DNA of 47,141 nt from Candidatus Omnitrophota bacterium (GTDB lineage: Bacteria > Omnitrophota > Gorgyraeia > 2-01-FULL-45-10): assembly GCA_028748925.1 (NCBI GenBank), contig JAQTPE010000003.1, positions 1 through 47,141 on the forward strand, written 5' to 3'. The notes beneath the pieces are model-generated. The model was not told the origin of the DNA, did no database searches, and saw only the letters and a list, made by a program, of their open reading frames with translations. The position numbers and the translations under genes are program-made. Positions 3,664 to 46,191 of the stretch are shown here, one piece after another. Each line of letters begins with the position of its first letter. The first letter of the stretch is position 1.

Positions 3664-5471
3664 AGATATTAGGTATCTCATCTTTTTATCACGATAGCGC
3701 GGCTTGCATAGTGAGCGACGGTGAAATCGTTGCCGCCGCGCAGGAGGAGCGCTTTACCCGGAAAAAACACGATGCGGGTTTCCCTGTAAACGCTATTAAC
3801 TATTGCCTTAAGGAAGCGGGCATAGGCGCAAAGGATTTGGATTTTATCGCATTTTATGATAAGCCTTTTATCAAGTTCGAGCGTATTTTAGAGACCTCTA
3901 TCAGTTATGCCCCGGCCGGAATAAGCCAATTTATACAGGCGATACCTGTCTGGCTGAAACAGAAGCTCTGGATCACCGAGATAATCAGGAAGGACCCGGG
4001 CTTTAACGGAAAGATCCTTTTTACCGAACATCATGAAGCGCATGCGGCGAGCGCCTTTTATCCCTCGCCTTTTCAGGAAGCCGCGTTTTTAACTGTAGAT
4101 GGAGTGGGCGAATGGGAGACGGCCAGTTTCGGCGTCGGCAAAGATAATGGTTTGGATATTCGGCAGTATCTCCGGTTCCCGAATTCTTTAGGCCTGTTAT
4201 ATTCGGCGTTTACATATTACACGGGTTTCAGGGTGAATTCCGGAGAGTATAAACTCATGGGATTGGCCCCTTATGGCAGGCCCATATATAAAGATATCAT
4301 CCTTAATGAGCTGATCGACCTGAAGGACGACGGTTCTTTTAAGATGAATATGAAATATTTCGGGTTTTGCGATAGCCTGCGTATGACGAATTCGCGTTTT
4401 AACCGCCTGTTTGGTTTCCCGCTCAGAAAGCCGGAGACGAAGATAACCCAAAATTATATGGATATGGCCGCCTCTATCCAGGAGGTCACGGAGGAGATCA
4501 TGCTTAAGATGGCTCTGCATATTCATAAGGTTACAGGCCAGGATAAGCTATGTCTTGCGGGGGGCGTGGCCTTAAATTGCGTGGGCAACGGCCGCATCTT
4601 GCGGGAGGGCCCGTTTAAAGATATCTGGATACAGCCTGCCGGCGGGGACGCGGGCGGCGCTTTAGGCGCCGCGCTTTTGATCTGGCATAAATATCTGGGG
4701 AATAAGCGCAATGCGGATGGGGTAAATGATTCGCAGAGAGCTTCATTATTGGGCCCGTCTTATAGCGATGATTATATAGAAGCGTTCTTGAAGAAAGAGA
4801 GTATTCCTTACAGGCGCTTAAGTTATAGTGATATTGTAAATGAAGTTTCGGACCTCATCATGGGCGGTAAGGTTATCGGATGGTTCCAGGGCAGGATAGA
4901 ATTTGGGCCGCGGGCACTGGGTTCGAGGAGCATTATCGGCGACGCGCGCAATCCGGATATGCAATCGAAGATGAACCTTAAGATAAAATACCGCGAATCT
5001 TTTCGTCCGTTTGCCCCGACTGTTCTGAAAGAGAAAGCTCCGGAGTGGTTTGAATTAGACAGGGAAAGCCCCTATATGCTTTTGGTAGCGCCTGTAAAAG
5101 ACGATAAAAGGTCCGGGGTTTCCGATGGAGATTCTATAGGATTTGAGAAGCTGAAAAGAGCGCGTTCGCTTATCCCCGCAGTTACCCATGTGGATTATTC
5201 CGCCCGTATCCAGACGGTGAAAAAGTCCGATAATCCGCTCTATTATGATATGATCCGGTCGTTTTCCGATAAGACAGGCTGTCCCGTTATAATAAATACA
5301 TCTTTTAACGTAAGGGGAGAGCCGTTGGTCTTAAGACCCGAAGACGCTTACAGATGTTTTATGCGCACGGAGATGGATTATTTAATGCTCGGGAGCTTCC
5401 TGCTTGACAAGAAGGACCAGTCTCCCGTCGAAAAGGATGTAAACTGGCAAAAGGAATTTGAATTGGACTAA
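3660..5471 (+). CDS. carbamoyltransferase (NodU/CmcH/SxtI family)
   Basis: 603 aa; ILGISSFYHDSAA N-terminus, HHEAHAASAF, C-terminal INTSFNVRGEP, all typical of this family. Confidence 0.9.
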   Translation: MKILGISSFYHDSAACIVSDGEIVAAAQEERFTRKKHDAGFPVNAINYCLKEAGIGAKDLDFIAFYDKPFIKFERILETSISYAPAGISQFIQAIPVWLKQKLWITEIIRKDPGFNGKILFTEHHEAHAASAFYPSPFQEAAFLTVDGVGEWETASFGVGKDNGLDIRQYLRFPNSLGLLYSAFTYYTGFRVNSGEYKLMGLAPYGRPIYKDIILNELIDLKDDGSFKMNMKYFGFCDSLRMTNSRFNRLFGFPLRKPETKITQNYMDMAASIQEVTEEIMLKMALHIHKVTGQDKLCLAGGVALNCVGNGRILREGPFKDIWIQPAGGDAGGALGAALLIWHKYLGNKRNADGVNDSQRASLLGPSYSDDYIEAFLKKESIPYRRLSYSDIVNEVSDLIMGGKVIGWFQGRIEFGPRALGSRSIIGDARNPDMQSKMNLKIKYRESFRPFAPTVLKEKAPEWFELDRESPYMLLVAPVKDDKRSGVSDGDSIGFEKLKRARSLIPAVTHVDYSARIQTVKKSDNPLYYDMIRSFSDKTGCPVIINTSFNVRGEPLVLRPEDAYRCFMRTEMDYLMLGSFLLDKKDQSPVEKDVNWQKEFELD

Positions 5472-37208: not shown

Positions 37209-37367
37209 ATGGTTGAGCGCAGTGATTATAATGGTAAGCCCATTCTGGTTTTGAGACGTAGCGAGGATGATAAATTCCCGTTCTCATTTGGCATCAACAA
37301 AGCAAAGTTGATACTGGAAAACCTCGAAGAGATAAAGAAATTCGTAGCGGAGAATACACAAGAGTAA
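37209..37367 (+). CDS. hypothetical 52-aa protein (not in ORF track)
   Basis: MVERSDYNGKPILVLRRSEDDKFPFSFGINKAKLILENLEEIKKFVAENTQE; AGGAGGAG with its core about 5-6 nt upstream; followed by a strong terminator. Confidence 0.5.
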   Translation: MVERSDYNGKPILVLRRSEDDKFPFSFGINKAKLILENLEEIKKFVAENTQE

Positions 37368-37388
37368 AAATTAATACAATATGCGATA

Positions 37389-37434
37389 GGGGTCAGGCGC
37401 TTTTTAGTAAAAAAGCGCCTGACCCCTTTTCTTT
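37389..37434 (+). terminator. intrinsic terminator
   Basis: GGGGTCAGGCGCTTTTT-AGT-AAAAAGCGCCTGACCCC perfect 17-bp stem, then TTTTCTTT. Confidence 0.85.
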
Positions 37435-37488
37435 GCTATTTTTATATGATATACTTGTAATCGACAGTTAGGATTACCTGTTGAAAAA

Positions 37489-37604
37489 GGCAAACCAAGA
37501 GTAATCTTGGGACGCAAAGCCATAGGGCCCGTTGAGAAACGGGAAGCCTGGTTGCCAAAGGGGTGGAAGCTTAAAGACCCTAAGGTTTTTGCCTTAGGGT
37601 TTTT
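37489..37604 (+). promoter_or_regulatory. c-di-GMP-I (GEMM-I) riboswitch aptamer (37489-37556) plus terminator expression platform (37577-37604)
   Basis: GGCAAACC-AAGA-GUAA-UCUU-GGGACGCAAAGCC-AUAGGG-CCCGUU-GAGA-AACGGG-AAGCCUGGUUGCC. P1 is GGCAA(A)CC/GGUUGCC, P2 has a GNRA loop, and the GACGCAAAGCC core is invariant. Then ACCCTAAGG-TTTTTG-CCTTAGGGT-TTTT. Confidence 0.8.
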
Positions 37605-37652
37605 CGCTTTCATATGCCCTTCGGCCTCCTCTTTTAGGATGGGGGTGAGCCG

Positions 37653-38222
37653 ATGGTCGGTCATAATGCCGCAATTCTTATATACCGGAACGCATTAGCG
37701 CTATTCTGCGCAGCTGGTATAACCGTATCTCCGGCCGCAATATCAAAAGAGACGCCTCTCCCAAAACCATCATTGTCAATAAGCCTTCCCGGAGAGAGGA
37801 CCTATACATTTTCAAAGACGGAATTATGGCGTTATTTGAGAGCGGGTATAAATTATCTTGAAGTCTCGGGCAGGGATGTCCCTGTTTATTATAAACATCC
37901 CGGCGGAAAGGCTTACGGTCCGCTGGCATTAACGCCCATAGCCGTTAAAGATGTAAAACTTCATTACCCGCAATTGTCGGCTTATACGTTTGATAACGTG
38001 TTGTCGGATCATGAGCTCTATGAGAAATTCGCCGCGGCCTACGCCGAACTTCTCCTGAAACATTATCTTAAGATCGATTATTTCGGTATGACTAAAGAGG
38101 ATGTTTTTGAGGCGCTCCAGAAAGGATGGTTTCTCGGTCCGACTCTCTATAAGAAAGGCCATCCTGTTATAATTTCCCGCCAAAAACGGGCCGCCGAATA
38201 TATCCGGTCAATGAGTGTTTGA
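37653..38222 (+). CDS. hypothetical exported protein downstream of the riboswitch (weak lytic-transglycosylase-like motif)
   Basis: 189 aa; hydrophobic N-terminus; LEVSG ... YGPLALTPIAV loosely resembles the ES...GLMQLMP pattern of SLT domains; function not established. Confidence 0.6.
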   Translation: MVGHNAAILIYRNALALFCAAGITVSPAAISKETPLPKPSLSISLPGERTYTFSKTELWRYLRAGINYLEVSGRDVPVYYKHPGGKAYGPLALTPIAVKDVKLHYPQLSAYTFDNVLSDHELYEKFAAAYAELLLKHYLKIDYFGMTKEDVFEALQKGWFLGPTLYKKGHPVIISRQKRAAEYIRSMSV

Positions 38223-38291
38223 TAAATACTATCATCTATGTTACAATTAAAACATATTTCGTATGCGCAGGAAATACGAACGATATCGGTC

Positions 38292-38383
38292 GGAGAGGTC
38301 GCCTAGTGGCCTAGGGCGGCGGTTTGCTAAACCGCTATATGGGTAATACCGTATCGAGAGTTCAAATCTCTCCCTCTCCGCCA
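38292..38383 (+). tRNA. tRNA-Ser (anticodon GCU), long variable arm, CCA encoded
   Basis: Acceptor GGAGAGG/CCTCTCC, anticodon stem GCGGT/ACCGC with loop TTGCTAA, ~20-nt variable arm, T arm GAGAG-TTCAAAT-CTCTC. Confidence 0.9.
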
Positions 38384-38440
38384 TTTTTACTTTATTTTAT
38401 CTGGTTAGAAATGAGTTTTTGTGATATATTTGTTTAAGAT

Positions 38441-38830
38441 ATGATACTGCATAATCGCAAAGGATTTACTCTCGCGGATATTATTTTAATCCTGATAGTG
38501 GTCGCTATAATGGCGGTATCGGGACTGGGTTTTTATTCATTGCTCTTTCAGCAACAGCAGAGGATCGTTCAGCAGATGACGGGCATAAATCTGGTGATGG
38601 CGCAGATAGAGGACCTGCTTGCCGAAGATTATAGCGCGGACGACCTGTTGCAAGGAAACAACAAAACTCCTACAATAAGTCCCATACCGGATGGGTATAC
38701 ATCCACTTCCTACACCGTAGAAGACCGAACTTATAACGGAATGTCATACAAGCGGATAACCGCGACGACGACTACTCCCGCTCCGGTATCGAGAACAATT
38801 CAACTGATAGGGTTCAAGGTGGACCAATGA
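38441..38830 (+). CDS. prepilin-type N-terminal domain (pilin/pseudopilin-like) protein
   Basis: 129 aa; NRKGFTLADIILILIVVAIMAV = class III signal-like G/FTL with Asp at +5, followed by a hydrophobic helix. Confidence 0.65.
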   Translation: MILHNRKGFTLADIILILIVVAIMAVSGLGFYSLLFQQQQRIVQQMTGINLVMAQIEDLLAEDYSADDLLQGNNKTPTISPIPDGYTSTSYTVEDRTYNGMSYKRITATTTTPAPVSRTIQLIGFKVDQ

Positions 38831-39231
38831 CAGCCAAATATTCCAAAAAAGGCTTTATCAGTATATTCTGGATAGCGGTGATGATGCTTATTACGACCGC
38901 GATCATGGTAACAGCCACATATATGTTCAGCACCTTTGCCGCAACTCCTGCTGAACAGCTATTGGTTCCGCTCCAGAATTACTATAACGCTGAATTCGGG
39001 ATATCATATGGAAATTTTAAAATTCCCACAGATCCGAACATAGTAAACCTATTTCAAAACTCAAGCTATACATATAATATCCCTTCCGCTATTATCGGGG
39101 CCGATCTTACCGTCACTATCACACGTCTTCATCCCGATGGATCGCCTAAACTTTATACGATTAGATCCACCGCAAATAACAGGATTATCACCGCTACCTG
39201 GAATAACGGCATCCTTACCCAGATAAATTAA
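38827..39231 (+). CDS. pilin-like hypothetical protein (atypical, no acidic +5)
   Basis: 134 aa; SKKGFISIFWIAVMMLITTAIMV; 4-nt overlap with the previous gene. Confidence 0.45.
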   Translation: MTAKYSKKGFISIFWIAVMMLITTAIMVTATYMFSTFAATPAEQLLVPLQNYYNAEFGISYGNFKIPTDPNIVNLFQNSSYTYNIPSAIIGADLTVTITRLHPDGSPKLYTIRSTANNRIITATWNNGILTQIN

Positions 39232-39364
39232 TCCTTAACGCTTGCCAAAGAAATTGTTTCGTGTTATACTTTGATAATACAATAGTTATTTTATTATATT
39301 GCATAGGGGTTATCTTTATATAATCTTAAATGTTAAAGCGAAACTGGATTAAAATATCGCTCAA

Positions 39365-39407
39365 AGACGCGAGTCTACAAACTCGGTTTGTACTTGCGTC
39401 TCTTTTT
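39365..39407 (+). terminator. intrinsic terminator between the pilin pair and the assembly genes
   Basis: AGACGCGAGT..ACAAAC-TCG-GTTTGT..ACTTGCGTCT compound hairpin, then CTTTTT. Confidence 0.6.
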
Positions 39408-39445
39408 ATGCCCATTATTTCTACTCTGTATATCGAAAAGGAGGA

Positions 39446-40186
39446 ATGTTGATAAAACTAACTATTTGGCGCATTTTGGCCGCAATGGCAATATTAGCTC
39501 TATTAGCGGTGACCTGGTATATGTTTATGTTAAACAAGAATATAAGCGCTAATAATGTGCGCCTGACCGAACAAAAACGGTATATTGAAAGAGAGCTTGA
39601 AGAACTCTATAAACAAAAAAAGGCGCTCGAAATAGAATTTGACAACGCGAAGAAAGAGAAAGAAGATCTCATAGACAAGATAGGTGATTATGAGACCATG
39701 GTAGAGAGGATGAAGTCCGAAAGCGAATCCAGGGCGAGAGGCCAGGAAGCCGAACTGAATAGAATAAAGGCCCTGCTGGCTCAAAGAGAGAAAGATCTTC
39801 CCGCGAAAGACGCTGAAATAAATTCATTGAAAGAGGCTTTGAGGCCAAGCAGGGAGAAGATAGAAGAGTTGACTAAGAAATTGAACAAGGCATCAAGGAA
39901 AATTATGACCAACGGCGGGATAAGCCTTCAGCCGATAACGGTCACGGCCGGCAAGGGTAAAATAAACGGTAAGGTGCTTGAGGTAAACCACGGATATGGT
40001 TTTCTCGTTGTAGATGTCGGGACCAGGGCAGGAGTCGAAAAAGGCGATACGCTCTTTGTGCTTAGAGATAACAAGCTCCTGGGGAAAATAGTCGTAGAGA
40101 GAACCGGTTACGATGTATGCGTGGCAAAGATACTGTATAAAGCGCTGGCCGACGCGGTTAAGAAAGGCGACCTGGTTTGCAACTGA
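39446..40186 (+). CDS. membrane-anchored coiled-coil protein with C-terminal beta-barrel-like domain
   Basis: 246 aa; TM helix, ~130-aa heptad region, C-terminal GKVLEVNHGYGFLVVDVG...GDTLFVLRDNKLLGKIVV; start may be TTG 39449. Confidence 0.55.
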   Translation: MLIKLTIWRILAAMAILALLAVTWYMFMLNKNISANNVRLTEQKRYIERELEELYKQKKALEIEFDNAKKEKEDLIDKIGDYETMVERMKSESESRARGQEAELNRIKALLAQREKDLPAKDAEINSLKEALRPSREKIEELTKKLNKASRKIMTNGGISLQPITVTAGKGKINGKVLEVNHGYGFLVVDVGTRAGVEKGDTLFVLRDNKLLGKIVVERTGYDVCVAKILYKALADAVKKGDLVCN

Positions 40187-40191
40187 TATAG

Positions 40192-41721
40192 ATGGAACCC
40201 CTCTTAGCGTTTAAAAAGATATTTTTTTCAAGTACCGCTATATACGTCAGTGAAGATTTCATAGACGTGGCGGAAGGCTCTACCGTATTCGGCGGCATGA
40301 AGATCTCCCTGCTGAAACGCTTTCCCATCGAGAAAAACACAAAAGGCCTGTCGTATGTGGATACAAATGTCGAGATAGGCAAGCTCATCGTGAAGCTCTT
40401 TCCCAAAGAGGAAGACAGGCCCTACAGGATAGCTATCAATGTACCCAACGCCCGTCTTATTTTGCGCCGATTTTCTATAAAAGGCGTTTCCAAAAACGAG
40501 ATCGACCAATCTATCGTCTTTGAAGCGCAGAAATATATCCCGTCGCTTATAGATAACCTTACCTATGGTTTTAAATCATATGTTTTAAGGCCCGGCCTGC
40601 GCGAGATAGTCTTCGCGGCGGTAGAGACGAAGAACATCCGTGAAACGATCGATTTCTTTTCCGAAAACAATATACATGCGTCTACGATCGAGCCTGTACC
40701 GGCATTGCTTGCCCGCTCGCTCAGCCTGAAGAAAAACCTGAGTAAAAAAGGCGCATATGTGTTTATACATTATGAACCGCATAACCGTGTTATCTTATGT
40801 GAAATATCGCACCGCTATCCTTACTTTTTCAAGGAACTTGTCATACCTCAGGTCGAAGCCGGTAAGAATGAGAACGGCTTAAGCTATCCTACATTGAAGG
40901 CAGTCTGGCCGCATATCGAGAAAGATGTGATAGGCGGCATAGACTATCTGAGAAAAGAGGCAAAAGAAAGAGTAGACGAGATACTCATCTCCGGTTTCGA
41001 ACCATCCGCCGATGAATTGGATCTGTCGCGGGAATTCGGCGTGCCTTTTGCGCGGCCAGATATGTCGTTCTTTAAAAATACAGATGAAAAGATAAAGGAC
41101 AGGCATCTGCCCGTCCTGATGCTGCTGCATGATCTGCAGAATAAGCCGTTTTTGAATATGGCGCCCGAAGACGTCGTTAAAAATGACCTGTGGATATTGA
41201 AAAAGGTGGCGATGAGATCGTTGATCATATTCCTGGTTATCATTGTTGCGCACCTCTTCCTTCTGGGAATAAATAACGCCAAGGCGGGCCGGGTGGCGAA
41301 CGCGCAGAAAGGCCTGGCGGCATACGAAGGCATTTCGGGAACCATCTCAAGGGAAGATATTCTGCGTTATAAAGATACGCTCACCGGCAAGGCGGCTCTG
41401 ATAAATACGCTTATAGATAAAAAATATTATCTTACGGAAAAACTGACGCAACTCAACGCGGCGTTACCGGAGGAATGCTGGGTAGACAATATCAGCTATG
41501 TCAATAAGACGTCCGCGGAACCCGCCGCCCCCGTTCTAACGGTGCGGGGATTCGTCTTTGCGGCGACGCCCTCAAGCAATACGGATCCCAATAAGATATT
41601 GGAAGCGATCAAACAGAATAAAAAGATAATGAGCGGATTTAAGAGCATAGAACTGGTCTCTGTAACGAAAAAGGAATACCTTAAGAACGAAATAACGGAA
41701 TTTGAGATCGTATTAAAATGA
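40192..41721 (+). CDS. PilM-like / PilN-like fusion protein (GspL-like architecture)
   Basis: 509 aa; ~330-aa cytoplasmic actin-like-sized domain, one TM (MRSLIIFLVIIVAHLFLLGI), ~150-aa periplasmic domain. Confidence 0.6.
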   Translation: MEPLLAFKKIFFSSTAIYVSEDFIDVAEGSTVFGGMKISLLKRFPIEKNTKGLSYVDTNVEIGKLIVKLFPKEEDRPYRIAINVPNARLILRRFSIKGVSKNEIDQSIVFEAQKYIPSLIDNLTYGFKSYVLRPGLREIVFAAVETKNIRETIDFFSENNIHASTIEPVPALLARSLSLKKNLSKKGAYVFIHYEPHNRVILCEISHRYPYFFKELVIPQVEAGKNENGLSYPTLKAVWPHIEKDVIGGIDYLRKEAKERVDEILISGFEPSADELDLSREFGVPFARPDMSFFKNTDEKIKDRHLPVLMLLHDLQNKPFLNMAPEDVVKNDLWILKKVAMRSLIIFLVIIVAHLFLLGINNAKAGRVANAQKGLAAYEGISGTISREDILRYKDTLTGKAALINTLIDKKYYLTEKLTQLNAALPEECWVDNISYVNKTSAEPAAPVLTVRGFVFAATPSSNTDPNKILEAIKQNKKIMSGFKSIELVSVTKKEYLKNEITEFEIVLK

Positions 41722-42305
41722 GCGACAGTATAAGAAAGATACTTGACGACAGGGAGAGATTTTCATTCGCGGTATTTATATTTCTGCTTTTAGTGTTCGC
41801 TTTCTTCTTATTGGTAAAATATGATCTGGGCACGTTCTTCCGTATGGACCGTATTCTCAAAGAGACGCATGAGAATCTTAATACTCTGGCAAATACGGTC
41901 GATTATAAAAACTACATAAATCAATTCGACTCGCAATTTGTCGGTACGGGAAACACGAGCGGGCTCATGGAGATCCTGACGGATCTTGTCAATGAGAAGA
42001 ATGTGACTCTGGAAAGCATAAAACCGCTGGAGAGTTATTCTGTGTTGGGATACAGGATAATCGGAGTAACCGCCGAAGGCACAGCTTCTTATCCGAGCAT
42101 CTTAAGTCTGTTATTCAGCATAGAAGACTATAGTAAATATATCCGTGTTGAATCGTTAACCATAAACGCGGGCAGGAAGTCGACCGATTTCCCCGATCCT
42201 TTTGTCGGGCGAGGCTTAATGCCGCCGCATATGCGGCCCGAACAGCCCGAAGCGCGTAAAACAAAATTCACATTGACTATAGTGTCCCCTGCAAGAGAGA
42301 TATGA
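41718..42305 (+). CDS. PilO/GspM-like pilus assembly protein
   Basis: 195 aa; N-terminal TM, coiled segment, ferredoxin-like C-terminus (VTLESIKPLE...IGVTAEGTASYPSILSLLFSIE). Confidence 0.55.
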   Translation: MSDSIRKILDDRERFSFAVFIFLLLVFAFFLLVKYDLGTFFRMDRILKETHENLNTLANTVDYKNYINQFDSQFVGTGNTSGLMEILTDLVNEKNVTLESIKPLESYSVLGYRIIGVTAEGTASYPSILSLLFSIEDYSKYIRVESLTINAGRKSTDFPDPFVGRGLMPPHMRPEQPEARKTKFTLTIVSPAREI

Positions 42306-42787
42306 TAGAATCCAGAAAAAAAGCGATAGAGATCGGTATAATAATCGTCGGCGTCCTTGTGCTCGTATTCCACGCTTTTAAGGTGACGGTGGCAAGAAAG
42401 AACAGCGAGAGCCGGATCACGATCGAAGTCCCGGCAAATTTTAATTTAGCGGAGGCAAAAAATACCCTGGCCGATATGGGTGGGGCGCGCCAAAAGAAGG
42501 AGCATCTGGAAGAACACCTGCGCGACATATTTCAGAAGCCGCTTAAGTTGACGGAGCTCGAACAGAGAAATTTAAGCGGAGCGATAGAAGACCAGGCATC
42601 CGTCCCGGAGGAAGAGAAACTTACGCTCGAAGGAATAATGTTCGGCGCAAGTGAAGGCAATATAGCCATAATTTCGGGTAAAGTCGTCAGGGAAGGCGAT
42701 ATGATAGGCCGCGCGGAAGTTAAAAAGATAGAGCCGGACAGGGTAATACTTTTAAAGAATGGTTCTCTGCAGGAACTAAAAAGATGA
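42302..42787 (+). CDS. PilP/GspC-like protein
   Basis: 161 aa; TM anchor; C-terminal LEGIMFGASEGNIAIISGKVVREGDMIG..V..IEPDRVILLKNG, typical of secretin-interacting HR domains. Confidence 0.5.
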   Translation: MIESRKKAIEIGIIIVGVLVLVFHAFKVTVARKNSESRITIEVPANFNLAEAKNTLADMGGARQKKEHLEEHLRDIFQKPLKLTELEQRNLSGAIEDQASVPEEEKLTLEGIMFGASEGNIAIISGKVVREGDMIGRAEVKKIEPDRVILLKNGSLQELKR

Positions 42788-44466
42788 GGTATAAGATGAG
42801 AGCAAAAAAGATTTTTGTTGTCGCGGGTGTTTTGTTTATCTGTTTTACGGCTGTATTGGCCGCCTTCGCCGTTGAAACGGCAAAGATGTATGATATTAAC
42901 GGTCATGCCGTTACCGGCCCGGTCTATGATAAGGACGCCGTCGTATCGCTCGACTTCGAAAATGCGGATCTCAAGAATGTTCTCAAAGCGTTTTCTATGC
43001 AGACCGGCATCAATTTTATCGCAAGCGATATAATCGAGGACAAGAAGATCACAGTATTCTTAAGCGGCGTTTCGGTCGAATCCGCTTTATTGTCCATGCT
43101 GGAGGCCAACGGCCTATTATATGAGAAGCAGCCCGGTAATGTCTATATGATCAAACCCACCGGCAAAGGCAATATCAAGACGATGACCAGGGTCTTCAGG
43201 ATGAACTATCTGCAGGTTTACAAGATGGCCGAAGCCATCGGAGCTACCGGAACGACTTCAAATATAACTATCATCGGACAGCCTGCCATAGCGCAGGCAG
43301 GGTCGGTCTCGTCGTCAACGGCTAATTCGGCCGCGACAGGCGGCCAGACGGGCGGCGGCGATGGCCAGGCGAAAAATATTATAGACATAATCCGAAGCCT
43401 GATGTCAAAATACGGCTCGATAATCGCGGACAGGAGAAGCAACAGTCTTATAATCACCGATATACCCGATGTTTTCGAAACCATAGAAGAGGTCGTAAAG
43501 AAACTTGATATAGAGCCGATCCAGATAGTGATCCAGGCCGAGATCATCGAAACTACCACTTCGGGCTTAAAGAGGATAGGCGCGGAATACGGTTCGGAGA
43601 CCCAGTTATTCAAGGCTACGTACACCGGAGCTTCAGATACCACGGCCGGTGCGACAAATTCCGAGAGCCCTACTTTTCCGACGCCGTTCCCGTTTACGCA
43701 ATCATTCCTGAAAAATACTTATGGGGCGACCCTTGCTAATTCGCCTTTTAGTTATGGTACGCTTACGATCGACGACATGGATTTTGTATTAAAATTATTG
43801 GCGCAGGACAGCGATACCAAATACTTATCGCGTCCGAAGATAATGACTATAAATAATGAACCTGCCATTATCAAAGTATCGGCCAACACGGCGATAGGTA
43901 CCAACAATACGAGCGTTTCGCAAACCGCTCAGAACATTACGACCGCCGAAAGAGCGGAGACGGGCATAATCCTTAAGGTGACGCCCCAGGTGAATGATAA
44001 TGGCGATATATTTATGTTCATCGAGCCGTCTGTTTCCAGGGCCGTTCCGTCGACCCTCTCCGCGTCTTTTTACGATCCAAGTTATCGCAGCGCGGCGAGC
44101 ACCGTCATGGTACGCGATATGGATACGGTCGTAGTGGCGGGACTGATAGAGACCAATAATTTCAAGACTACGCGGAAGATACCTTTTCTCGGAGATATAC
44201 CTTTAATAGGCGAGGCGTTCAAGTCGAAATATAATAAGACCGAGGATACCGAACTTTTGATGTTTATCACGCCCCGTGTAATTAAAAAACGTGACGCCGA
44301 AATTATAACCCCTCCCAACATGAGCGATCGCGGATATATGATAGACAAAACATTGGCGCAATATACTGAAAAAGTACCGGAACAGGATGATCTGAAACGC
44401 GACGCTGAGATAACGAAAGCGCTTAAGAAATACCCCGCTCTTACGGGTAAACCCAAAAAGAAATAG
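42784..44466 (+). CDS. secretin (PilQ/GspD family)
   Basis: 560 aa; signal peptide, N0/N1-like VSLDFENADLKNVLKAF and IADRRSNSLIITD, C-terminal secretin domain (TRKIPFLGDIPLIGEAFK...LMFITPRVI). Confidence 0.88.
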   Translation: MRYKMRAKKIFVVAGVLFICFTAVLAAFAVETAKMYDINGHAVTGPVYDKDAVVSLDFENADLKNVLKAFSMQTGINFIASDIIEDKKITVFLSGVSVESALLSMLEANGLLYEKQPGNVYMIKPTGKGNIKTMTRVFRMNYLQVYKMAEAIGATGTTSNITIIGQPAIAQAGSVSSSTANSAATGGQTGGGDGQAKNIIDIIRSLMSKYGSIIADRRSNSLIITDIPDVFETIEEVVKKLDIEPIQIVIQAEIIETTTSGLKRIGAEYGSETQLFKATYTGASDTTAGATNSESPTFPTPFPFTQSFLKNTYGATLANSPFSYGTLTIDDMDFVLKLLAQDSDTKYLSRPKIMTINNEPAIIKVSANTAIGTNNTSVSQTAQNITTAERAETGIILKVTPQVNDNGDIFMFIEPSVSRAVPSTLSASFYDPSYRSAASTVMVRDMDTVVVAGLIETNNFKTTRKIPFLGDIPLIGEAFKSKYNKTEDTELLMFITPRVIKKRDAEIITPPNMSDRGYMIDKTLAQYTEKVPEQDDLKRDAEITKALKKYPALTGKPKKK

Positions 44467-44484
44467 GTAAAGGGATAATATAGA

Positions 44485-46191
44485 ATGGCCGGAGTGGACA
44501 GAAGGCGTATCGGCGATATACTGATAGAAGATGGCATGATTACGCCCGAACAACTGAATGAGGCCCTGGAACTTCAAAAAGGGTCGATAGACGATATAGC
44601 TATAGGAGAGGTTCTTATACAGCTCGGGCATCTCTCGGAAGAGGGGCTGTCGTTATCTTTATCTAAAAAACTGAAGATAAAATATCTTTCCTTCAGTGAT
44701 TATTCGCTCGAGATAAGATACGACCAGGGGCTCGACAAACTTATAGGAGAAGAGTTCGCGAGAATGCATCTCGTCCTGCCTATATCAAAGACCCAAAAAG
44801 CGATCTCGATCTCGATGTGGGATCCGCTCAATTTTGTCTGCATAGATAATATAAAAAGGATGACGCTCCTTGATGTTACGGTGTATTGCAGTACGAAAAA
44901 GGATATACTCGAGGGTATCGAAAGGCTTTATGTATTGAAAGGGCCGCCCGTGAACGGCTATGCGGCATCCGCGATAACGGTGGACCAGAAGCCGCCGGTA
45001 GCGAGAAAAGAGGAGGTCGAACAGCTTAAGATGAAGGCCTCCGAGCCGCCCATTATAAAATTGGTCAATATGATAATCCAGCGCGCCATTAAAGATAAGG
45101 CCAGCGATATACATATAGAGCCGACTGAAACCGGTATCGATATAAGATACAGGATAGACGGTATATTATACGCCATAGATACGCCATCCAAAGACATGTA
45201 CGCGCCGATAGTATCGAGAATAAAGATACTATCGCGGCTTGACATAGCGGAAAAGCGTCTGCCGCAGGACGGCGGTTTCTCTATAAAGATAGATAACAGA
45301 ACCGTCGATTTTCGCGTATCTACCATACCGACGATATACGGTGAAAAAATAGTCATAAGGATCCTGGATAAAGAAAAGATGGGATTCGATCTTAGCTCTA
45401 TCGGAATGTCAAAGCCGGATTTCCTCAAAGTCTCTACGGCCATAAAGAAACCTTACGGACTGATCTTTATAACAGGCCCCACAGGAAGCGGAAAGACGAC
45501 GACGCTCTACTGCATACTCAACTCTATAAAATCGCCTCAAAAGAATTTGATCACTATAGAAGATCCTGTGGAATACAAGATAGAGGGTGTTAACCAGGTC
45601 CAGGAGATGTCGAGTATAGGATTGAGCTTCGGCCGCGGCCTTCGGGCATTCCTGCGGCAGGATCCGGATATAATCATGGTTGGCGAGGTCAGGGACCTGG
45701 AGACGGCCGAAATGGCGGTGCGCTCCGCGCTTGTAGGAAGGCTCATATTGAGCACTCTGCATACAAACGACGCCGTCGGCGCCATATCGAGACTTCTCGA
45801 TATGGGCATAGAACCGTTTCTCGTAAGTTCGACGCTGATAATGGTTATAGCCCAGAGGCTTGTGCGCAGGCTCTGCCCCGAGTGTAAAAAACGCGTCAAA
45901 AATATCGATAAAACCACCATCGATAAATATAAACTCGCCGGCGCAACGCTTTATGAGCCTAAAGGATGCTCCAAGTGCAATAATCGCGGGTTCTCCGGCA
46001 GGATCGCTGTATTCGAAATATTGATAGCCGACCCGGAGATACAGGAGCTTATAGAGAAGAGGGCCGACATAACGGTCATAAAAAGCGCTCTTATAAAAAA
46101 AGGGATGAAGCTGCTTCGCGACGACGCGATGGAAAAGGTTCGTGAGGGCCAGACAACATTGAATGAAGCCATAATAGCTACAATGGAGTGA
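44485..46191 (+). CDS. type IV pilus/T2SS assembly ATPase (PilB/GspE/MshE family) with MshEN-type N-domain
   Basis: 568 aa; Walker A GPTGSGKTTT, Asp/His boxes, tetracysteine CPEC...CSKC, N-terminal RIGDILIEDGMITPEQLNEALELQ. Confidence 0.93.
   Translation: MAGVDRRRIGDILIEDGMITPEQLNEALELQKGSIDDIAIGEVLIQLGHLSEEGLSLSLSKKLKIKYLSFSDYSLEIRYDQGLDKLIGEEFARMHLVLPISKTQKAISISMWDPLNFVCIDNIKRMTLLDVTVYCSTKKDILEGIERLYVLKGPPVNGYAASAITVDQKPPVARKEEVEQLKMKASEPPIIKLVNMIIQRAIKDKASDIHIEPTETGIDIRYRIDGILYAIDTPSKDMYAPIVSRIKILSRLDIAEKRLPQDGGFSIKIDNRTVDFRVSTIPTIYGEKIVIRILDKEKMGFDLSSIGMSKPDFLKVSTAIKKPYGLIFITGPTGSGKTTTLYCILNSIKSPQKNLITIEDPVEYKIEGVNQVQEMSSIGLSFGRGLRAFLRQDPDIIMVGEVRDLETAEMAVRSALVGRLILSTLHTNDAVGAISRLLDMGIEPFLVSSTLIMVIAQRLVRRLCPECKKRVKNIDKTTIDKYKLAGATLYEPKGCSKCNNRGFSGRIAVFEILIADPEIQELIEKRADITVIKSALIKKGMKLLRDDAMEKVREGQTTLNEAIIATME

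Follow-up and report, generated by a model that had tools for sequence, protein, structure and literature searches.

The stretch of DNA analysed here (the window) comprises 47,141 nucleotides of a contig from Candidatus Omnitrophota, to our knowledge a phylum without cultured, genetically tractable members. On the forward (+) strand, a promoter-like block (37447–37461) is followed by a riboswitch aptamer with a lineage-specific extended P1 helix (37476–37564), an intrinsic terminator termed T1 (37573–37604), a hairpin involving the ribosome binding site (RBS; 37622–37652), and an open reading frame (ORF) of 189 amino acids (37653–38222). Further downstream, a tRNA-Ser gene (38292–38383) and a cluster of type IV pilus/T2SS-like genes (38441–46191) are found. 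A scan of the whole window with cmscan and Rfam 15 assigns positions 37479–37559 (+) to the family RF01051 (c-di-GMP-I), with a score of 71.8 bits and an E-value of 3e-12. The gathering score of this family is 35, and the match spans model positions 1–87 of 87 and is not truncated. It is the only riboswitch at gathering thresholds in the window, the other Rfam matches being four tRNAs. Our own covariance model R1 gives the aptamer 103.9 bits. The original prediction had identified a c-di-GMP-I (GEMM-I) riboswitch, and the letters that it quoted for 37489–37556 are found there exactly as written. A score of about twice the threshold, obtained by a check of the cmsearch type named in that prediction, supports this identity, as do the canonical contact bases, the compensatory changes among 25 distinct relatives, and the conservation of the terminator in the relatives examined.

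G20, A47, and C92 are ligand-contacting residues of the Vc2 aptamer (PMC4744006; PMC5888326). G20 touches one of the ligand guanines (PMC4744006; PMC5888326), and C92 forms a Watson-Crick pair with the second (PMC5888326). Up to position 47, the numbering of Vc2 corresponds to window numbering with 37470 as position 1. Alignment to the Rfam consensus places the equivalents of these residues at 37489 (G), 37516 (A), and 37555 (C) of the forward strand. The equivalents of G45 and C46 (37514–37515) pair with the GC at 37490–37491, forming the pairs G21-C46 and C22-G45, which are kept in 100% of the 25 relatives. The C44 equivalent (C, 37513) has its interhelical partner in the G83 equivalent (G, 37546), a tertiary pair that is assigned at sequence level. 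An interhelical C-G pair is universally conserved in the c-di-GMP-I class (PMC4744006).

For pair counts, 25 distinct aptamers were aligned independently with MAFFT. In the helices of the Rfam type, 85.6% of cells are paired, and both partners have changed in 10 pairs. The score for covariation amounts to 0.289, versus 0.140 in shuffles (none of 500 reaches the observed value), and lies far above all slid controls. The first hairpin, P1b (CCAAGA-GUAA-UCUUGG, 37495–37510, with the GNRA tetraloop GUAA at 37501–37504), had been described as P2 in the original prediction. It is present as proposed, with 100% pairing and changes on both sides in 5 of its 6 pairs. The second hairpin (P2/P3, AGCC..AGGGCC-CGUU-GAGA-AACG-GGA-AG-CCU-GGUU, 37518–37553, following the Rfam alignment) is short and has no recognisable 11-nt receptor at sequence level. 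Its base helix, formed by AGCC (37518–37521) and GGUU (37550–37553), is 99% paired, and one of its pairs switches from G-C (17 sequences) to C-G (6 sequences). The P1 helix for which we find support consists of the strands ACCUGUUG (37476–37483) and CAAAGGGGU (37556–37564). A different P1 (GGCAA(A)CC/GGUUGCC) had been proposed earlier and has to be given up: it displays no covariation, its last pair breaks in 17 of the 25 sequences, it uses the same CC as the P2 of that very proposal, and the column of its G81 equivalent covaries with the base of the second hairpin instead. Judged by its sequence, the riboswitch is a genuine and canonical member of the c-di-GMP-I class with a terminator platform, and would be expected to bind c-di-GMP.

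A different ligand, either cGAMP (GEMM-Ib) or that of a variant of the c-di-GMP-I-GGC type, appears very unlikely to us. It might be suggested by the fact that 5 of 10 genome loci score best with RF03167 (c-di-GMP-I-GGC; 61–64 bits, gathering score 59), and that GGC stands in place of GAC just 5′ of C44-G45-C46 in most relatives. However, the base that defines RF03167, a G after GACGC at position 47 (consensus GACGCGAAgCc), is an A in the window and in all relatives, which rules out this variant, and the window itself prefers RF01051 by a wide margin. A47, G20, and the C equivalent to C92 are kept in all 36 aligned aptamers, including those of the five loci labelled RF03167. Since these bases are canonical throughout, the labels are a side effect of overall similarity; what they pick up is the short second hairpin and the P1 pairing of that model, not the binding site. 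For annotation pipelines, this is a warning that an RF03167 label can land on sequences that lack the defining base of the variant. The cGAMP riboswitch (GEMM-Ib, the Geobacter subtype) carries A instead of G at position 20. The G at 37489 and the invariance of G20 in 25 aligned relatives speak against this subtype.

Upstream of the aptamer, the promoter-like block consists of an extended −10 element, TGATATACT (37447–37455), followed by TGTAAT (37456–37461). Nearly all relatives carry the motif TG(A/G/T/C)TATA(C/G)T 5′ of their aptamer, and the extended −10 (TGnTATACT) is followed by T-n-TA-(A/G)-T and then by (T/C)GACA(A/G)TTAGGA up to the start of P1. A promoter of the form TTGCTA-17-TGTAAT had been put forward for this region. 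Both hexamers are present (37433–37438 and 37456–37461), but TTGCTA as a −35 element is not conserved, whereas the extended −10 is. Transcription probably starts just downstream of the extended −10 element, judging from its conservation. A further terminator is located at 37388–37427, 5′ of the promoter-like block. Two ORFs that overlap the riboswitch, one of 86 amino acids on the reverse strand (37404–37664) and one of 63 amino acids on the forward strand (37507–37698), run through the conserved RNA structure and are hence treated as spurious.

The intrinsic terminator T1 (AAAG-ACCCUAAGG-UUUUUG-CCUUAGGGU-UUUU, 37573–37604) begins 8–12 nt after the aptamer. Its arms are ACCCUAAGG (37577–37585) and CCUUAGGGU (37592–37600), separated by the loop UUUUUG and followed by UUUU (37601–37604). 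The 9-bp hairpin with UUUU at 37577–37604 that had been read from the sequence is thus present, and RNAfold extends it to 11 pairs with −17.4 kcal/mol. It was not listed by a simple terminator scan of the window, presumably because upstream A residues pair with the U tract in the extension of the stem. A terminator is found at the same place in the relatives examined, its stem sequence differing between lineages. None of 200 dinucleotide shuffles of the whole leader (37470–37660) reaches its folding stability (z = −4.4).

T1 is followed by an RBS hairpin (37622–37652), in which the Shine-Dalgarno-like GGGGGUGA pairs with CCUCC and which ends directly at the AUG. Its arms vary in relatives (CCUCC/GGGGG, GAGCC/GGCUC, AGCUC/GAGCU), with one pair scored as compensatory. 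In addition, a helix enclosing T1 is predicted, in which AGGGGUGGAAGC (37559–37570) pairs with GCUUUCAU..CCCU (37606–37620). This helix is part of the minimum free energy (MFE) structure of the window and close relatives and of the RNAalifold consensus of 10 relatives, with support that comes mostly from invariant positions or one-sided changes. Its 5′ strand overlaps the 3′ strand of P1, and it abuts the RBS hairpin. In the folding models, it would compete with P1 in the full-length RNA.

Scans of genome and metagenome collections with a family profile yielded 53 loci with a homologous ORF, and aptamers were searched with a covariance model built from nine aptamers. In 35 of the 53 loci, of which about 25 are distinct, the aptamer immediately precedes the homologous ORF. 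Among the other loci, a contig end interrupts the aptamer or leader in three, the upstream region is unrelated in another three, and four (L020, L021, L023, L024) have kept the promoter block and the RBS hairpin but have lost both aptamer and terminator; for the remainder, upstream sequence is missing. Since these four relatives have retained the gene without the aptamer, some lineages can dispense with this control. L001, L002, L004, L015, L017, L018, and others share the upstream order odc-hss-hsp20-orf52-aptamer-ORF, the four genes encoding an ornithine/DAP decarboxylase-like protein, a saccharopine-dehydrogenase-like protein, Hsp20, and a conserved ORF of 52 amino acids. The downstream genes differ between relatives. 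The ORF of L001 (an ortholog with 78% identity) has purB-purC-purM-purD (adenylosuccinate lyase, SAICAR synthetase, AIR synthase, GAR synthetase) on its downstream side, and that of L008 sits between two genes with PilZ domains. With conserved genes upstream and differing genes downstream, the conserved regulatory unit consists of the aptamer and the 189-aa gene.

The 189-aa ORF belongs to a family restricted to Omnitrophota. It has 75 homologs, all of them unnamed, and those with a label derive from Candidatus Omnitrophota/Omnitrophica MAGs. With only 50 cluster representatives in a set of 1.84 billion proteins, the family is very small. Searches with 30 members found no Pfam or NCBIfam family at E ≤ 10, and the family profile found no PDB chain at E ≤ 10 and no sequence-profile link to SLT. 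An AlphaFold model based on 68 sequences has a pLDDT of 82 overall and above 90 for residues 56–189; it replaced a first model based on 30 sequences (pLDDT 68.6), which gave only non-significant fold matches. The top 30 or so Foldseek matches of the newer model in the PDB have the lysozyme fold, namely MltE, MltC, Slt70, MltF, gp144 of phage phiKZ, Cj0843, and invertebrate lysozymes; probabilities run up to 1.0, but the E-values are no better than 0.04–0.1 and the TM scores are 0.4–0.49. E70 and S72 are invariant and form a Glu-x-Ser motif at the start of the conserved domain. SLT enzymes carry an E-S motif. The protein has a hydrophobic N-terminus in which a Cys is nearly invariant, and one remotely homologous domain occurs in fusion with a peptidoglycan amidase (Amidase_2). 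The protein is probably an exported enzyme resembling lytic transglycosylases, which is meant as a hypothesis based on the fold model and not as a family assignment. The regulated family has thereby gained a testable functional guess, in that it may cleave peptidoglycan.

The riboswitch had been placed at the head of a pilus region. In its strongest form, this would make it the regulatory head of a type IV pilus/T2SS-like operon (38441–46191) with the 189-aa gene as the first cistron. The cluster encodes pseudopilin-like, PilM-like, GspM-like, and GspC-like proteins, a secretin, and a GspE/PilB-type ATPase (44485–46191). All genes from 37653 to 46191 lie on the forward strand, the terminator scan detected no terminator-like site in the interval 38222–38441, and an enzyme that cuts peptidoglycan would suit a machine that spans the envelope. 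Moreover, the ATPase matches the model of an MshE-related c-di-GMP-binding motif with 49.6 bits (cut-off 38), and its start RRIGDILIEDGMITPEQLNEALELQ fits what we take to be the MshEN consensus. In known systems, c-di-GMP activates pilus assembly through the MshEN motif. On the other side, the tRNA-Ser gene separates the 189-aa ORF from the cluster and has a promoter-like site of its own (TTGATA-17-TACAAT with TG, 38219–38247). In relatives with orthologs that are 68–78% identical and with identical upstream synteny, the ORF is followed by the pur genes (L001) or other genes, and in the relatives examined neither a homolog of any gene of the pilus cluster nor a tRNA-Ser gene was found within 5 kb of the ORF. 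The adjacency to the pilus region is thus found in this window only, the aptamer of relatives always preceding the 189-aa ORF. Read-through into the pilus cluster is not supported, and we consider it improbable that the riboswitch heads such an operon.

The MshEN motif of the ATPase bears on another point. The aptamer had been called the only direct sign of c-di-GMP signalling in the window, a statement that does not stand, as this motif is another feature related to c-di-GMP. The accompanying statement that the window encodes no diguanylate cyclase or phosphodiesterase agrees with a crude motif search in six frames of the window (as distinct from a profile search), which did not find the GGDEF, EAL, and HD-GYP signatures. 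Taken together, the riboswitch, the MshEN-type ATPase, and the PilZ neighbours in L008 indicate active c-di-GMP signalling in these organisms.

A possible switching mechanism is suggested by a resemblance within the leader. The loop and 3′ half of T1 (UUGCCUUAGGGU, with UUUGCCUU at 37588–37595) resemble the 3′ tail of the aptamer, UUGCCAAAGGGGU; in direct comparison, UUGCC-UU-AGGGU in T1 corresponds to UUGCC-AAA-GGGGU in the aptamer tail. The mimic UUUGCCUUAGGGU (37588–37600) is a candidate partner for antitermination, being complementary to the aptamer 5′ strand in two blocks, AAGGCAAA (37487–37494) and ACCU (37476–37479). Within it, UGCCUU is invariant in T1 of 24 relatives, though often located in the unpaired terminator loop; its complement in the aptamer, AAGGCA, does not vary either. 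As AAGGCA is invariant for ligand binding, this complementarity is beyond the reach of covariation. RNAduplex predicts the bipartite duplex in all 24 relatives, with energies between −9 and −16 kcal/mol; the z-scores versus shuffles are modest, with a mean of −2.4 and values above −2 in 10 of the 24. When the 5′ arm of T1 is blocked in folding, the mimic duplex is the partner chosen in most relatives, and it is part of the unconstrained MFE structure in L022, L005, L045, and L038. An antiterminator formed by the 3′ tail of P1 and the 5′ arm of T1 was also considered, but comprises only 3–5 bp that are not kept across relatives and is not favoured.

We hypothesize that, in the ligand-free RNA, the aptamer 5′ strand (ACCU...AAGGCAAA, which includes G20, G21, and C22) would be free to pair with UUUGCCUUAGGGU. 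This pairing would block the T1 hairpin, such that RNA polymerase may continue into the ORF. Binding of c-di-GMP would lock P1 and the junction, T1 could form, and transcription would stop. Given that AAGGCAAA holds G20 and the G21/C22 pairs that are fixed by the ligand, an OFF switch is the simplest model. That the ligand promotes termination appears to us fairly probable from the arrangement of these segments.

The reverse direction, an ON switch in which c-di-GMP would suppress termination at T1, open the RBS hairpin, or do both, so that high c-di-GMP induces the gene, is the alternative to be weighed. For the window, folding gives −49.8 kcal/mol to the terminator conformer and −36.6 to the antiterminator conformer, a difference of 13 kcal/mol, so that read-through would need kinetic control under the OFF model, and a terminator that is the thermodynamic default is what would be expected of a default-off, ligand-on design. 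An antiterminator that captures the 3′ arm of T1 must also outcompete the nearby 5′ arm, an observation that speaks against the OFF model. An ON response could come about if the ligand stabilised a P1-like helix with the mimic in T1 instead of the native 3′ tail, and the mimic has the same UUGCC as the native tail, including the C92-like C. As the 3′ tail of P1 takes part in the helix enclosing T1, which touches the RBS hairpin, the ligand could also act on translation, and co-induction would be coherent with the neighbouring ATPase with its MshEN motif. However, the aptamer and T1 occupy separate segments, and both arms of T1 therefore stay free when the ligand is bound with P1 in its native form. 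No antiterminator that the ligand could release lies between P1 and T1, where there are only 8–12 nt with a best pairing of 4 bp, and this linker is likewise too short for a three-hairpin scheme of the ON type. Furthermore, the native tail is transcribed before the mimic. We therefore regard an ON switch as unlikely and retain the OFF switch as our working model; the likelihood left by these two falls to more complex or translational control.

With high confidence, we thus describe the locus as a class I aptamer in the leader of what looks like a monocistronic gene for a 189-aa protein, predicted to be exported and lysozyme-like, with T1, an RBS-occluding hairpin, and a proposed OFF logic. A further-reaching proposal combines two elements: a platform that works by molecular mimicry, in which c-di-GMP would determine which of two almost identical partners the 5′ strand pairs with, and an Omnitrophota regulon centred on the lysozyme-like family. 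This combination is tentative and, taken as a whole, somewhat doubtful. If true, the regulon would comprise unrecognised, lineage-specific enzymes, possibly for envelope remodelling or for attack on host cells. Irrespective of this, a well-supported lineage of c-di-GMP-I riboswitches in Candidatus Omnitrophota is added, tied to one small, phylum-restricted protein family. Literature searches found no description of this regulated family for c-di-GMP-I riboswitches, nor of a case in Omnitrophota or upstream of a lytic transglycosylase. The known working of GEMM-I riboswitches is unchanged by these findings.

Among known systems, the regulated protein is most similar to MltE and MltC of E. coli and other family-1 lytic transglycosylases (SLT), which are its best and most consistent structural matches and are of similar size. 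The hydrophobic N-terminus with its Cys is a further point of agreement, and the Glu-x-Ser motif resembles the E-S motif of SLT enzymes. Unlike these enzymes, it has no detectable sequence-profile similarity to SLT, the Foldseek E-values being those given above. As for the aptamer, Vc2 and RF01051 share with the window a match over the full length of the model, the junction AAAGGCAAAC...GACGCAAAGCC, the residues G20/A47/C92, the interhelical C-G pair, and two hairpins of which the first has a GNRA loop. When its loop is GUAA, Vc2 binds c-di-GMP at 2.2 nM (PMC5888326). Unlike in Vc2, the second hairpin here is short, is capped by GAGA, and shows no obvious 11-nt receptor for the tetraloop, P1 is extended by ACCU/GGGU, and the host belongs to the Omnitrophota.

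Regarding the expression platform, Cd1 of Clostridioides difficile (the flgB leader) is a c-di-GMP-I riboswitch that acts as an OFF switch via an intrinsic terminator. The window has the same succession of an aptamer and a Rho-independent terminator, with increased termination in the presence of ligand being proposed here as well. In contrast to Cd1, the proposed antiterminator would be formed by the aptamer 5′ strand and the loop and 3′ half of T1, the mimic of the aptamer tail. The long platform of the c-di-GMP-I riboswitch Bc1 of Bacillus thuringiensis contains two terminators and combines control of transcription with that of translation (PMC11218506). More distant relatives of the present leader (L029, L031, L038, and others) similarly display two tandem terminators after the aptamer, and the window and its close relatives have a terminator followed by an RBS-occluding hairpin. 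Unlike Bc1, the leader in the window has a single terminator, and the two platforms are without sequence relationship.

One sublineage of the related loci (L-numbered, drawn from genome and metagenome collections, each carrying a homolog of the 189-aa ORF) lacks the aptamer and the terminator and retains the promoter block, the RBS hairpin and the gene itself. In its leaders (L020:500-730, L021:390-610, L023:480-710 and L024:3920-4150) a leftover GGAAAAAGGC is fused to the post-terminator sequence. This sublineage is a case of riboswitch deletion in nature.

Other relatives have enlarged the aptamer. An insertion of 45-75 nt, forming one or two additional hairpins, separates the C44 equivalent (Vc2 numbering) from the G45-C46 pair at L036:4594-4737, L010:3726-3872 (L050 being identical) and L039:2820-2971 (L040 being identical), and probably at L017:~4040-4221. 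These variants were detected, at ~52 bits, only by the custom covariance model built from nine related aptamers; the L010 aptamer, the sole one at an insertion locus to be scanned against Rfam, gave no match at gathering score. Labelling is a further matter: the orthologous aptamers of L001, L002, L004, L005 and L008 receive the Rfam label RF03167 (c-di-GMP-I-GGC) with scores barely over the gathering score, and the position that defines this variant is occupied by A in these aptamers, not by G. Mis-annotation in metagenome pipelines is a likely result.

Between hsp20 and the riboswitch lies a conserved 52-aa ORF (37209-37367, + strand), which keeps its position and 73-94% identity in many relatives, matches no Pfam or NCBIfam family, and probably encodes a genuine small protein. 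Two mechanical ORFs running through the riboswitch and terminator, of 86 aa (37404-37664, - strand) and 63 aa (37507-37698, + strand), would be false if called as genes.

Within the pilus/T2SS-like cluster, the secretion ATPase of GspE/PilB type (44485-46191, + strand) carries an N-terminal MshEN-type c-di-GMP-binding motif, RRIGDILIEDGMITPEQLNEALELQ, which matches NF053729 with 49.6 bits (cut-off 38). The motif makes the ATPase a predicted second c-di-GMP receptor in the window, at the protein level. At L008, genes for PilZ-domain proteins, likewise c-di-GMP receptors (L008:4049-4513 and L008:5564-5920), stand on either side of the riboswitch and the 189-aa homolog. At the front of the cluster stand two pseudopilin-like genes (38441-39231, + strand), whose family matches are weak or absent. 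A tRNA-Ser(GCU) gene (38292-38383, + strand) sits precisely where synteny with the relatives stops and the cluster starts, and this junction may be the trace of a rearrangement or of an insertion at the tRNA.

Regarding the 189-aa family, remote matches to its domain occur in two larger proteins, adjoining an Amidase_2 peptidoglycan amidase domain in P0118 (777 aa) and a PA14 domain in P0117 (596 aa). These partners hint at a cell-wall or carbohydrate context.

In more distant relatives (L029, L031, L006, L008, L035, L038, L045, L036 and L039) the aptamer is followed on its 3′ side by two tandem terminator hairpins. In several of them, such as L029, L035, L038 and L045, GUUUGCC is also found within the second terminator, where it is complementary to GGCAAAC of the aptamer. 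The tandem arrangement is reminiscent of Bc1 from Bacillus, which has a dual terminator (PMC11218506).
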